Shown piece after piece: positions 19,156-22,988 of a DNA stretch of 30,951 nucleotides. The stretch lies in the IMG/VR virus record IMGVR_UViG_2778261530_000010. One strand, written 5' to 3'. The notes under the pieces are model-generated. The model saw only the letters and a list, made by a program, of their open reading frames with translations. It did not search any database and had not been told where the DNA came from. Source of the DNA: a virus (lineage: Duplodnaviria; Heunggongvirae; Uroviricota; Caudoviricetes). Position numbers and translations under genes: made by a program. Position 1 is the stretch's first letter. Each line of letters begins with the position of its first letter.

Positions 19156-19503
19156 TTATGATAGAATCAAGCATATACATCCATCAATAAAGCCTAATGC
19201 AGTTTGCAGCTCCTTTCTTATAGTTCCATCTGAGCACCTGCGTTTCTTCGCGATTGAGCGTAGAGAAACACCAATAACAAAGTGAGCAATAACCAACTCA
19301 TATTCTTCTGGTTTATATTTCCGCAAACGAGCAACACAACCGTCTATCATAATGCCTTCATCATCATCGCACTGGAGGCGTGACTTTTTACCATGCGGCA
19401 AAAGCCCCTTGAAACCCGCTGCTATCGGTTGCCAATCGACACCACTATTTTCTGCTGCAGCCCATGCCCCCCAGCGGTCTAAAACCTCATACATATCACG
19501 CAT
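19156..19503 (-). CDS. Q: Late-gene antiterminator Q (phage 82 / QuuD-like family)
   Basis: MRDMYEVLDRWGAWAAAENSGVDWQPIAAGFKGL... resembles the remembered DLP12 QuuD sequence; TAATG overlap with the upstream gene. Confidence 0.8.
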   Translation of the reverse strand: MRDMYEVLDRWGAWAAAENSGVDWQPIAAGFKGLLPHGKKSRLQCDDDEGIMIDGCVARLRKYKPEEYELVIAHFVIGVSLRSIAKKRRCSDGTIRKELQTALGFIDGCICLILS

Positions 19504-20360
19504 TATTCACACTCCCCAACCAGATTGAGGATGACCGCCGAGCCATTGTCTTTCATATATTCTCCCTTTCCGCTTGCTAAAAACCAACGACACACCTCCA
19601 CGGCTTCAGCCCGTGTGACCGGTTTGATGGTCATCAGCAATTTTTCAAGGTAGCGCTCGCGGTCATATACCGATTCGTGATGCTCAGAGTAACCAAACTC
19701 ATCGCCCTGTTCTTTAGTTGCAGTGTGGCGAACACTGTAGAGCCAGTCCCAGTAAACAAACTCACGAACTACGTCTGACAATGTATGAGGCTCTGGCAGC
19801 ACATCACGATAGCCATCAACATATGCACGACGCTGATCATCAATTTCATTCATACGGATGCCGTCAATGCTGCCCGCTTTCTTCTCGGCTGCAGTCCACC
19901 CCCAGAGATGATCATCGATAAATTTCTGGGAAGACTTGATCACTCGCTCGGCTTCCACATCTTCGAGTGCTGCTTCATAGCTACCAAACGTAGCCCTGAC
20001 TGATGCTGCTTTTTTTATATTTTCCCGGGCGATCCTGATTGCCTGTGCCGGGTTATCCATGCCGATGGTACCGAAAGCAATCTGGAAAGGATCGCCACCA
20101 TTCGCCAGCAGATAACGCGAATAGCGTTCTTGGGCCTCTTTTGGGGAAATTTTAATTTTCACCAGCGCGGCCTCAGCAGCATCCAGATGTGCGGGTTCGT
20201 TCAGACGGATAACCTCCAGCACCCAAAGATAAGCATCAGTCTGCTTATGCCCGGTGATTCTCCGTTGCTCTGGCAGGGGCTTGATGTTTGCGAGGGTGGA
20301 GCTGTACGCTGCCGTCGGGATGGTGAATAGTGCTTTATGTTCGTTGTTATCAGTACGCAT
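19503..20360 (-). CDS. Hypothetical protein (285 aa), no family recognised
   Basis: Long ORF with TAATG start/stop overlaps to the primase upstream and Q downstream. Confidence 0.6.
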   Translation of the reverse strand: MRTDNNEHKALFTIPTAAYSSTLANIKPLPEQRRITGHKQTDAYLWVLEVIRLNEPAHLDAAEAALVKIKISPKEAQERYSRYLLANGGDPFQIAFGTIGMDNPAQAIRIARENIKKAASVRATFGSYEAALEDVEAERVIKSSQKFIDDHLWGWTAAEKKAGSIDGIRMNEIDDQRRAYVDGYRDVLPEPHTLSDVVREFVYWDWLYSVRHTATKEQGDEFGYSEHHESVYDRERYLEKLLMTIKPVTRAEAVEVCRWFLASGKGEYMKDNGSAVILNLVGECE

Positions 20361-21328
20361 TACACAACCGCCTTTTTCTTATGGAAAACCAACTCTCGAA
20401 CCTGATCACCGTTCATGAGCATATTGTTGAAATCATCGTGATCCGGCCAGTACACGCTCACGCGCTGCAGGTCATTCTTTGCCATCAGATTGGCATGAGC
20501 ACATTCGCAAGCCGCAGCCAGCCCGGTGGCGCTGTTCTCGTCACGGTCAGCAAAAATAATCAGATGCAGAACACCAGCTGGTACACGGAACTTTTTCATA
20601 AAGCCGCTGTTAATGGTTGCCCAGGTGTTCACGTTATAAATCTGGTGCGCTGACAGCGCTGTTTCGATGCCTTCGGCGATACCCAGAGTGCTGGCGACAG
20701 GAAACATGCGGATAGCTACAGAACGAGCGTGATCCAAATAGTTATCTTCCTGCAGGGATTTGAGGCGCTTTGCACTGCTACCGATATCTGCTTTTTTATC
20801 ACCATCAAGCAGAGTCTGGTGCAGATAGCACAACTCCCCTTTATCGTCCGTAGCAAGTGAATAAAGAGACTGGAACACACTCCCGTTGTGTCTCTGCCTG
20901 GCATTGAACCGGATCGCCTCAGCAGGAAGACTGAATATTCCACGAGAATTAAAATACGCTGCGCCGGATGTACCACGCAGTGCCTCCAGTTTTGAAAACT
21001 TGCTCAATACCCGTTTGCGTAAGCTGGTGGCGCTGCTGGTTACCGGGATTTTAACCCGTTGGTAATCATTACCGATCAGGCGGTCTATTTCGGTACAAAT
21101 CTCGTTAAATGGCTTCGCCTGTGTCAGGGTGACAAGTTTCATACCATCGCCACTACCACATACACAGATCCACGTTCCTGCACCGTCGCGGTCATCAATT
21201 CGGAACTTGCCACGTGCACCGCATACCGGGCATTCACCCTTGAAGTGATTTTTTCCGGTTATCGGCGGCAGACCGAAGTGCTCTAATATTTCAGGCCAGC
21301 GGCCTTTCGCTGCATCTGCTGTTTTCAT
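20360..21328 (-). CDS. DNA primase, N-terminal zinc-ribbon plus TOPRIM domain
   Basis: CPVCGARGKFRIDDRDGAGTWICVCGSG zinc-binding motif; TOPRIM-like IAEGIETALSA and IIFADRDENSAG. Confidence 0.75.
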   Translation of the reverse strand: MKTADAAKGRWPEILEHFGLPPITGKNHFKGECPVCGARGKFRIDDRDGAGTWICVCGSGDGMKLVTLTQAKPFNEICTEIDRLIGNDYQRVKIPVTSSATSLRKRVLSKFSKLEALRGTSGAAYFNSRGIFSLPAEAIRFNARQRHNGSVFQSLYSLATDDKGELCYLHQTLLDGDKKADIGSSAKRLKSLQEDNYLDHARSVAIRMFPVASTLGIAEGIETALSAHQIYNVNTWATINSGFMKKFRVPAGVLHLIIFADRDENSATGLAAACECAHANLMAKNDLQRVSVYWPDHDDFNNMLMNGDQVRELVFHKKKAVV

Positions 21329-21329
21329 C

Positions 21330-22988
21330 TTACTGACTCAGACTGTTTATATTTTTCTGGAGTTGGTGCTTTGCCTGCATGATGCGCCAGGCCTCACTGC
21401 CTGCCGGTATCTCACGTCGTTCATCACGTTCCTGAGATAAATCAATCGTTGTTTGTGCGTTTTCAGTGACCTTCTGAACCCGCTGGTGGCCTTTGGCAAA
21501 CCGGATCAGTTTGTGTCTGATGTAGTTATTTACCTCAGGGGTAATTTCCATCGGAAAGTTACTCAGTCCGTCAGGCCACTCGCCGAACTTTTCCCGGAAA
21601 GTGTGAGCACACCATCCGTCACTGACTGGACGCCCCAGCGAAGCACGCTGGCGCTGATAAAATTTGATCTGACTCCACCAGGACTGTTTCTCTGCCTTCG
21701 TCGACTGATGCTGATTTTTACCCAGCTTATTAAGTTTGCGGCTAGTGTCAGTATCAACGTCTTCACCTCGCAGCGGCTTGTGTCCACATTTCGGGCAAAC
21801 ATAGACGCCTGCTGGCTTCATGTAGTGGCATTGAGGGCATTCATGTGGCAGTTTTTCGGCCCGTTCCTCAACTGCCCGGCGCACGCTTTCCTCCATGCCG
21901 TCAGACTTACCGGGAAGCTCGTCGTACTCGATTGAATCCGGATAACCCAAACGGTGCACGGTGCCGCTGTGATCGAAGATAAGGCAGGACGCTTTACCCG
22001 GTGCGGTGCGCAGCCCACGCCCGAGTGCCTGCAACCAGCGAATTTCGCTTTTTGTTGGCCTGGCGTAGATGATGCAACGAACGTCACTATCGAATCCGGC
22101 TACCAGAACGCCCACACTAACGATGATTTTCGTTGCACCGGTTTCAAAGCGGTGAATGATGGTCTGGCGCTCATCTACCGGAGTGTCGGCGGTCATTACC
22201 TCAGCGTTAACACCCGCCAGGTTAAACTGGATTGTCAGGTAATTGGCGTGGGCTACGTTGACGCAGAAAGCGATGGTAGGTAGATCCCGACCATTCTCCA
22301 GCCAGTTCTGTACAATGTCGCCCACCAGCGTAGAGCCGCACATGATTTCAGCCAGCTGTGTTTCGTTGTAATCGCGGCCGTACTCAAGCGAAGATGTGGT
22401 TTTAACACCTTTCAGATCCGGCTTAGTTGGCGCGTAAAATTCGTATTTACTCAGATCGCCACGCTGGATTAACTCGCCGATGGTGGTCGGTTTAATCAGT
22501 CGGTCATAGTATTTGCCCAGGAACGGGGAAAACGGAGTACCCGACAGGCCAATCACCTTTACGCCTTTGCCGCGCAGACGTTCGATATCCTTCAGGATGC
22601 GTTTTTTACGCAGGTGCGCTTCGTCGATAATCAGCAGATCGATATTTTCAGGAAAAACACGACGAATAAGCGTATCAGCGCTGGCAATCTGAATTTTCCG
22701 GTCAGGATCGTAGTTCGGGTGATCCGCCCAGATATAACCGATTTCATCTCCAGGTAAACCATACTGCACGAACCGATTAGCCGTCTGACCAATCAGGATG
22801 GTGTACGGAACACAGAACAGAGCGCGCATACCACGGCTGACAAAACCAGCAACTATGAAGGCTGCCAGACCCGTTTTACCGCTACCTGTTGGCGAATACA
22901 CCATGAAGGTGTCGTTTGCCTTCCAGTCACGGCGCAACATGTTTAGCGCTCGTTCCTGTGCAAAATTCGGCGTGATCGTCAGCTCCAT
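21330..22988 (-). CDS. Superfamily 2 DEAD/DEAH-box helicase with C-terminal zinc ribbon
   Basis: Walker A SPTGSGKT, motif II IIDEAH, helicase C-terminal region, CPQCHYMKPAGVYVCPKCGH. Confidence 0.8.
   Translation of the reverse strand: MELTITPNFAQERALNMLRRDWKANDTFMVYSPTGSGKTGLAAFIVAGFVSRGMRALFCVPYTILIGQTANRFVQYGLPGDEIGYIWADHPNYDPDRKIQIASADTLIRRVFPENIDLLIIDEAHLRKKRILKDIERLRGKGVKVIGLSGTPFSPFLGKYYDRLIKPTTIGELIQRGDLSKYEFYAPTKPDLKGVKTTSSLEYGRDYNETQLAEIMCGSTLVGDIVQNWLENGRDLPTIAFCVNVAHANYLTIQFNLAGVNAEVMTADTPVDERQTIIHRFETGATKIIVSVGVLVAGFDSDVRCIIYARPTKSEIRWLQALGRGLRTAPGKASCLIFDHSGTVHRLGYPDSIEYDELPGKSDGMEESVRRAVEERAEKLPHECPQCHYMKPAGVYVCPKCGHKPLRGEDVDTDTSRKLNKLGKNQHQSTKAEKQSWWSQIKFYQRQRASLGRPVSDGWCAHTFREKFGEWPDGLSNFPMEITPEVNNYIRHKLIRFAKGHQRVQKVTENAQTTIDLSQERDERREIPAGSEAWRIMQAKHQLQKNINSLSQ

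Follow-up and report, generated by a model that had tools for sequence, protein, structure and literature searches.

A Fels-1/Eru1-type helicase-primase operon in an Escherichia coli prophage, with an orphan all-alpha protein in the nin slot and a conserved non-coding element upstream

What takes the place of the lambda replication genes O and P, and of the nin region, when neither stands between cro and the antiterminator gene Q, and which of the genes found there belong to replication? The question is raised by a 30,951-nucleotide (nt) stretch of a caudoviricete genome (IMG/VR record IMGVR_UViG_2778261530_000010), hereafter the window, in which a DEAD/DEAH helicase, a Toprim primase and a protein of 285 amino acids (aa), here termed X, precede Q. 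We identify the region as the delayed-early (pR) operon of a lambdoid prophage of E. coli, of Fels-1/Eru1 type; its helicase and primase stand in for lambda O/P, and X and the helicase-primase pair are genetically separable. The best overall explanation, to which we assign a probability of roughly 55%, is a Fels-1/Eru1-type operon that combines a core replicon with an accessory adaptor, X. The four genes on which the argument turns are as follows, in order of transcription.

21330-22988, minus strand: superfamily 2 (SF2; DEAH) helicase, 552 aa (Pfam domains and phrog_16), RadD-like, orthologue of Eru1A
20360-21328, minus strand: predicted primase, 322 aa (Pfam domains and phrog_510), orthologue of Eru1B
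19503-20360, minus strand: X, 285 aa, predicted all-alpha, an orphan in the nin slot (open reading frame, ORF, and phrog_6204)
19156-19503, minus strand: Q antiterminator, 115 aa (Phage_antitermQ PF06530, 155.5 bits; phrog_79, Q-like)

An earlier note, made from the letters of this DNA alone, had described these four ORFs as a chain of linked stop and start codons leading into Q, and the chain could be read directly at the same coordinates. Specifically, the helicase-to-primase junction cagTAAgATGaaa is TAAgATG, and both the primase-to-X junction (gtgTAATGcgt) and the X-to-Q junction (gaaTAATGcgt) are TAATG. The chaining is genuine, yet ordinary; overlapping stop and start codons are common in phage operons. 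The same note had placed a DEAD/DEAH SF2 helicase and a zinc-ribbon Toprim primase at the O/P position, and Pfam matches above cut-off bear this out. The helicase matched ResIII (55.7 bits), Helicase_C (41.4 bits) and DEAD (38.7 bits), all above the curated cut-offs, as well as phrog_16 ('DNA helicase', E 2.8e-103), and its translation contains the PTGSGKTG (Walker A) and IIDEAH motifs that place it in the SF2 DEAD/DEAH group. Its C-terminus bears a CxxC...CxxC zinc ribbon plus an additional domain, and among solved structures it comes closest to E. coli RadD (6jde, E 5.8e-20). Against the RadD equivalog model (NCBIfam NF053632) it scored 91.4 bits, far from the cut-off of 720, and on its sequence we classify the protein as RadD-like, not RadD.

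The 322-aa protein matched Zn_Ribbon_Prim (53.2 bits), DUF7146 (47.6 bits) and Toprim_3 (54.4 bits), again all above cut-off, together with phrog_510 ('DNA primase', E 1.3e-129). Having both the zinc-binding and the Toprim domain, it is a predicted P4-alpha/DnaG-like Toprim primase and would correspond to the N-terminal primase portion of P4-alpha-type proteins, as a stand-alone polypeptide; sequence searches returned no solved relative of it. Between cro and Q, the ORF list and the Pfam and PHROG scans contained no O/P-like and no nin-family gene, nor the domains of a lambda-type module (Phage_rep_O, a P loader, or DnaB/DnaC analogues). Q itself was recognised by its PF06530 match, which exceeds the gathering score, and by the terminator-like site and late genes that lie beyond it.

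The arrangement is not new. The 4-kb region is 99.8% identical in DNA to chromosomal prophages of many E. coli genomes, 96-97% identical to the Stx2f (Shiga toxin 2f) phage phi467 and to phage vB_EcoS-611R1, and 86% identical in DNA to Salmonella phage Fels-1, with conserved gene order. Fels-1 was sequenced two decades ago. In the Eru1 group of Shiga toxin (Stx) phages, the DEAD/DEAH helicase Eru1A, the Toprim protein Eru1B and the DUF1367 protein Eru1C replace O/P (Llarena et al. 2021, PMC8044961). Eru1 was described there as a non-lambdoid replication unit, its role in replication being assigned by gene position, with no origin mentioned and no N homologue reported in the group (PMC8044961). 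Compared over their full lengths with the proteins of the Stx2a phage TL-2011c, the window helicase shares 66% identity with Eru1A and the primase 57% with Eru1B. The two orthologues are adjacent and lie between cI/cro and Q, as an Eru1 assignment demands; the third gene differs from that of Eru1, X having neither DUF1367 nor another Pfam match. The module is almost certainly of the known Fels-1/Eru1 type, and its arrangement was already available from Fels-1 plus the published classification of replication units.

X had been counted as part of the replication module, and here the earlier note did not hold up. In Yersinia phage YP3 and Escherichia phage Fostie, the helicase-primase pair (81-83% nucleotide identity) runs directly into Q, and tblastn found X to be absent genome-wide from both. 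Klebsiella phages (e.g. KPP5665-2 gp43) have in the slot a 158-aa X in which only the N-terminal motif and the C-terminal half are kept. In TL-2011c the slot is occupied by NinB-NinG-NinH, which agrees with the claim that X sits where nin genes normally do. Moreover, X was found beside unrelated replication modules in a survey of its context that covered 42 genome loci plus the loci of distant relatives. The gene upstream of X was a Toprim primase in most loci; the other upstream neighbours were a DnaB-type helicase (five loci), a DUF927 primase-helicase (four), ProQ/FinO (three), SSB (two) and a DnaC/IstB-like protein (one). Distant members lay behind a D5_N primase in an integrative island, behind a DnaD-like initiator, or in the early-left operon. 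Downstream, Q followed X directly in 27 of 35 loci, and these Qs belonged to two unrelated families, PF03589 in 18 loci and PF06530 in nine. We consider it probable that X is accessory and dispensable, rather than part of the replication core, and, on balance, regard it as a nin-slot accessory that tends to follow replication genes and is not needed by the helicase-primase pair.

X is nevertheless a real, selectively constrained protein of an uncharacterised family. It matched PHROG 6204 (unknown function) with E 3.7e-184 over residues 1-285 of 286, its C-terminal part also matching phrog_2887 and phrog_19083, and its 394 homologues at E <= 1e-3 form 138 clusters at 50% identity in Gammaproteobacteria. 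The comparison with Fels-1 yielded 91 synonymous and 46 non-synonymous changes in X, and its non-synonymous/synonymous ratio of 0.51-0.65 compares with 0.35-0.67 for the helicase and primase (against Fels-1 and ENT39118). The statement that X has no recognisable family proved correct for Pfam, NCBIfam and the PDB. X gave zero Pfam matches at E up to 10, and when X and up to 59 relatives were compared with Pfam, NCBIfam, PADLOC, and PDB sequences and profiles, the core stayed unmatched. The match that would have told against this statement by the note's own account, to a nin family (NinB/Orf, NinG/Rap, NinH, NinI phosphatase and others), was sought in Pfam and found neither for X nor among the 59 relatives. 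The names of ten distant-relative clusters were all 'hypothetical', and the literature on the Fels-1 homologue (STM0902 / WP_001553018) consisted of one incidental operon listing, with nothing functional. STM0900-STM0903 were flagged as one predicted operon in an array analysis of mutagen-treated Salmonella (PMC2225428).

Structure prediction, which had been suggested as a check, yielded a confident all-alpha AlphaFold (AF2) model with a predicted local distance difference test (pLDDT) score of 92, for which neither the PDB nor BFVD contained a structural neighbour; the best matches, all weak, were to helical-repeat binding scaffolds. The near-invariant residues are mostly proline, glycine, tryptophan and aromatic, with none that looks catalytic, and this pattern suggests a scaffold rather than an enzyme. 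Many relatives of X are ~45 residues longer at the N-terminus, where the extension matches sigma-70 region 4, HTH_23 or HTH_SB. Such a helix-turn-helix (HTH) extension was present in at least 12 of the 59 diverse relatives, and there was also one Bro-N and one ParB-N-like fusion. The window copy lacks the ~45-residue extension and none of the HTH models matched the 285-aa protein, so that the NCBI name 'helix-turn-helix domain-containing protein' misdescribes it. Separately, a metagenomic protein (P0166, 1324 aa) contained seven distinct X-matching stretches along with scattered, weak and unrelated Pfam matches; it may be a mis-assembled or repetitive fusion.

The most resilient competing explanation is that X is an integral replication protein, which might, for example, load the helicase, serve as an accessory subunit of the primase, or recognise or organise the origin. 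Replication genes, of whatever type, always precede X at a distance of zero to two genes, X is under the same selective constraint as the helicase and primase, and its relatives carry HTH, Bro-N and ParB-N domains, as initiators and organisers do. Several observations also weigh directly against treating X as an accessory. X is present in 97 complete E. coli genomes and the full helicase-primase pair in 100, the two nearly always together, and X is translationally coupled to the primase by the TAATG junction; near-constant co-occurrence and coupling would fit a dedicated partner. Furthermore, YP3 and Fostie prove X dispensable only if both replicate by this module alone. On the other hand, the same pair is found without X (YP3, Fostie), with a shortened X (Klebsiella) and with nin genes instead (TL-2011c), and X is paired with at least five unrelated replication systems, so that no shared protein partner is evident. 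Additionally, no sequence or fold similarity was found between X and lambda P, DnaC, DnaD, gp59, PriC or any solved protein, and the window copy has no DNA-binding domain. Taken together, we judge an integral role in replication to be unlikely.

Somewhat less credible again is a role for X, with or ahead of Q, as an early-to-late or lysis/lysogeny regulator, resembling an antirepressor or a transcription factor. X stands immediately upstream of Q in the 27 loci noted above and overlaps the start of Q in the window, the HTHs of its relatives resemble sigma-70 region 4, and the Bro-N fusion of one relative is an architecture typical of phage antirepressors. However, adjacency to Q is expected of any gene that is last in the nin slot, and the presence of two unrelated Q families (PF03589, PF06530) beside X speaks against a pairing specific to X and Q. 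Members of the family are also found in integrative islands and in the early-left position with no neighbouring Q, and the window copy has no HTH of its own.

On the same low footing is the idea that X is a host-takeover or counter-defence accessory that neutralises a protein of the host or of a competing element and has no connection to replication as such. Within an operon that is otherwise conserved, X may be present, absent or truncated, and its slot is exchanged with other accessory genes; both are in keeping with such a function, as are the orphan all-alpha fold, the want of catalytic-looking invariant residues and the weak matches to helical-repeat scaffolds. Yet defence models returned only noise for X (PADLOC, E 0.0034 over 46 residues), N-terminal DNA-binding fusions are unusual for simple inhibitor proteins, and X is tightly linked to replication genes across very different elements. 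Finally, a spurious or decaying 285-codon ORF, a view that could appeal only to the missing family annotation and to the label 'hypothetical protein' in some RefSeq records, is refuted by the 138 clusters, the full-length PHROG match, the 91 versus 46 changes and the pLDDT of 92.

We therefore return to X as an accessory adaptor. On this account X would be a non-enzymatic helical scaffold or adaptor, descended from a family whose ancestral form was tethered to DNA by an N-terminal HTH (or by Bro-N or ParB-N), and synthesis of the HTH-less X of the window would keep pace with that of the primase and Q. Its most likely role would be to modulate, by contacts with other proteins, either replication or the processing of DNA that is being replicated, without being required for either. 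The narrower proposal that X is a DNA-associated adaptor is offered tentatively, at clearly less than even odds.

If X is set apart, the remaining question is where the helicase and primase might act. The earlier note had pointed to 22989-23710 as the place to look for an origin or iterons. That interval holds a gene (orf120) and a conserved helicase leader with a short upstream open reading frame (uORF), and only 23463-23710 is a true gap. It contains a conserved element with the following parts.

23463-23710, minus strand: conserved non-coding element, 248 nt, from alignment across relatives
23684-23705, minus strand: hairpin with an invariant 8-nt loop, UUAAAGGU, and a 7-bp stem, from covariation
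23637-23656 and 23477-23496: GTACTA/TAGTAC palindromes that flank the core, from an inverted-repeat search
23601-23622: polypurine G-tract
23531-23567: box CTTTTCCAAC...GGTACATAGGTTAGGTAGATCT with two GATC sites six bases apart, then an A-run

Within the element, a 93-nt block (23531-23623) that includes the GAGAGGAGGGGAGGGGGAGGAG tract shows few differences among phages of E. coli, Salmonella (Fels-1) and Klebsiella (KPP5665-2), whereas the flanking coding DNA is visibly more diverged. YP3, Fostie, TL-2011c and ~20 prophage loci all have a recognisable copy of the core of the block, which comprises the G-rich polypurine tract and CTTTTCCAAC...GGTACATAGGTTAGGTAGATC, and the element is linked to the helicase-primase pair in all relatives. 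The UUAAAGGU hairpin follows directly on the orf97 stop in one or two copies and was also seen in surveyed loci L014-L029, L056, L057 and L058. Across 17 distinct instances, 90.8% of cells were paired and six of the seven pairs had compensatory changes; none of 500 shuffles did as well, and slid controls reached 25-48%. There were 14 G-U cells, favouring the sense strand, and the RNA fold of the element had a z-score of -4.1 in sense and -3.5 in antisense orientation. To our knowledge, no protein is known to bind the UUAAAGGU hairpin.

The element is the best candidate for a replication origin, a proposal that we place somewhat below even odds. Two points count against it. No iterons or tandem repeats were found, and the G-U pairs of the hairpin suggest that it forms in RNA or in the sense strand when single-stranded, as would suit a regulatory RNA no less than an origin; a cis-regulatory RNA is the alternative to an origin here. 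No Rfam family was detected in the element at gathering thresholds, and a match to the DUF805 RNA (16 bits against a threshold of 51) was dismissed as noise. Two other candidate interpretations were discarded. A nut site was rejected because the window has no second exact copy of the loop for a nutL/nutR pair: the UUAAAGGU motif occurs once exactly, and its two one-mismatch matches, both inside the helicase gene, are the number expected by chance. Likewise, ~37-42-kb 'plasmid' records with the helicase-primase pair were rejected as proof of an autonomous replicon, the one examined being a whole phage genome with no replicon typing.

In the reading that we prefer, the helicase and primase would form a self-contained replication unit together with orf97 and the non-coding element. 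As one possibility, pR transcription through the G-rich tract would open or prime the element in the manner of an R-loop, for the helicase and primase to enter. A bolder version, in which X represents a new fold family acting by a mechanism so far undescribed (e.g. a DNA-tethered adaptor, with HTH and core in its ancestral form, coupling replication forks or intermediates to a host factor or to late expression) and the element is a new kind of origin that needs no initiator and that transcription or an R-loop would activate, seems to us improbable; if true, such an origin would serve the RadD-like helicase and primase of Fels-1/Eru1 phages, the major Stx2a outbreak phages included.

The remaining features of the operon and its borders are these.

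22979-23038, minus strand: 19-codon uORF (MKTTSQNYYLISTGAAQWS), read from the sequence, its stop overlapping the helicase ATG
23100-23462, minus strand: orf120, 120 aa (ORF and PHROG; phrog_1347, unknown function)
23711-24004, minus strand: orf97, 97 aa (ORF and PHROG; phrog_852, unknown function)
23967-24218, minus strand: cro-like first early-right gene, 83 aa (phrog_4749; the Fels-1 homologue is annotated as a cro analogue)
24255-24986, plus strand: LexA/S24-type cI repressor, divergent from the cro-like gene (Peptidase_S24 and HTH_3 matches)
19056-19080, minus strand: tR'-like intrinsic terminator, a 10-bp stem followed by a T-run (consensus scan)

The role of the last of these as tR' is inferred from its position alone. 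Of the contents that the earlier note gave for the module, the helicase, primase, X and Q all stand; orf97, conserved upstream, had been left out. It accompanies the helicase-primase pair in nearly every relative, and its 652 homologues are all named 'hypothetical'. AF2 modelled it poorly, as three helices with a pLDDT of 59, and its profile had no match in the PDB. In TL-2011c (NC_019442), an orf97 homologue without annotation lies at 1660-1955, in a 530-nt 'gap' between cro and gp29; hence the published Eru1 maps miss a conserved gene.

By comparison, orf120, inserted between the non-coding element and the helicase, is optional. The window, Fels-1 and KPP5665-2 have it, YP3, Fostie and most prophage relatives do not, and it travels together with a variant form of the upstream non-coding block. 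Its segment …CAIEVDKK… looks like a candidate PD-(D/E)xK or Vsr-like nuclease motif. The helicase leader (22979-23090) is conserved at the nucleotide level in Fels-1, YP3, Fostie and loci L014-L039, and holds a GGCTGG...CCAGCC hairpin at ~23055-23090. A coding role for the 19-codon uORF is doubtful because the peptide ends earlier in YP3, and the conservation of the leader may be at the level of RNA.

Beyond Q and the tR'-like terminator, directly downstream, the window encodes a pertussis-like AB5 toxin pair (17638-18985, minus strand). The A subunit (18197-18985) matches Pfam Pertussis_S1/Scabin-like and is named 'scabin-related ADP-ribosyltransferase' in RefSeq, and the B subunit (17638-18063) bears the RefSeq name 'subtilase family AB5 toxin binding subunit'. 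Stx phages carry stx in the same slot, and expression of the AB5 toxin is presumably Q-dependent; the lysis genes also lie downstream of the Q terminator. On the other side, the early-left operon (window 27674-28501, plus strand; 16377-17997 in locus L001) encodes SPFH-domain and ORF6N-domain proteins by their RefSeq names, with no obvious recombinase in the part examined.

A widespread group of enterobacterial prophages replicates, or is presumed to replicate, by means of the helicase-primase unit. The group spans Fels-1, the Stx2f phage phi467 and, with proteins 57-66% identical, the Eru1 Stx2a phages linked to severe enterohaemorrhagic E. coli outbreaks. Replication after induction sets the toxin gene dose in such phages. 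The division into a core (orf97, the element, helicase and primase) and swappable parts (X, orf120 and nin genes) offers a guide to dissecting or blocking the replication of toxin phages. The orphan fold of X and the conserved non-coding element are the noteworthy parts, X having been catalogued (PHROG 6204) yet left unstudied. Conserved, modelled with confidence and without a structural relative, X is a reasonable, if not urgent, target for functional work.

The module can be set beside five known systems. RadD (PDB 6jde), like the window helicase, has a zinc-binding element behind its second RecA-like domain and then another C-terminal domain. Unlike RadD, which is a DNA repair helicase, the window protein adjoins a primase in a phage replication context, and its activity is a prediction only. 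P4 alpha and the window primase share Zn_Ribbon_Prim and Toprim_3, and the Fels-1 annotation cites the P4 primase. However, P4 alpha unites a primase, an SF3 helicase and an origin-binding domain, whereas the window has a separate 322-aa primase and an SF2 RadD-like helicase, and neither a P4-type origin-binding domain nor octamer iterons were found in the window module. The lambda nin region, like the X slot, lies between the replication genes and Q, with accessory content that varies among related phages; in lambda it is a cluster of genes (ninB/orf, ninG/rap, ninH, ninI), and in the window it is a single gene, X, that matches none of them.

TL-2011c resembles the window in having a LexA-type repressor and cro on one side, Q on the other and a toxin operon after Q, and in the orf97 homologue, G-tract and GGTACATAGGTTAGGTAGATC box upstream. 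In contrast, the UUAAAGGU-loop hairpin was not seen in TL-2011c, and its third gene is eru1C (DUF1367/NinB), followed by NinG and NinH, where the window has a single unrelated 285-aa protein. Fels-1 differs from the window in its cargo after Q and in Q itself, which at 271 aa belongs to a different family and size class from the 115-aa PF06530 protein of the window; the long Qs of Fels-1-related loci are of the PF03589 type. In the operon proper the correspondence is close. Fels-1 STM0899-STM0904.1n comprises orf97, orf120, helicase, primase, X and Q in the same order as the window, with protein identities of 85% for the helicase, 94% for the primase (STM0901) and 84% for X (STM0902), the last of these being as uncharacterised in Fels-1 as it is here.

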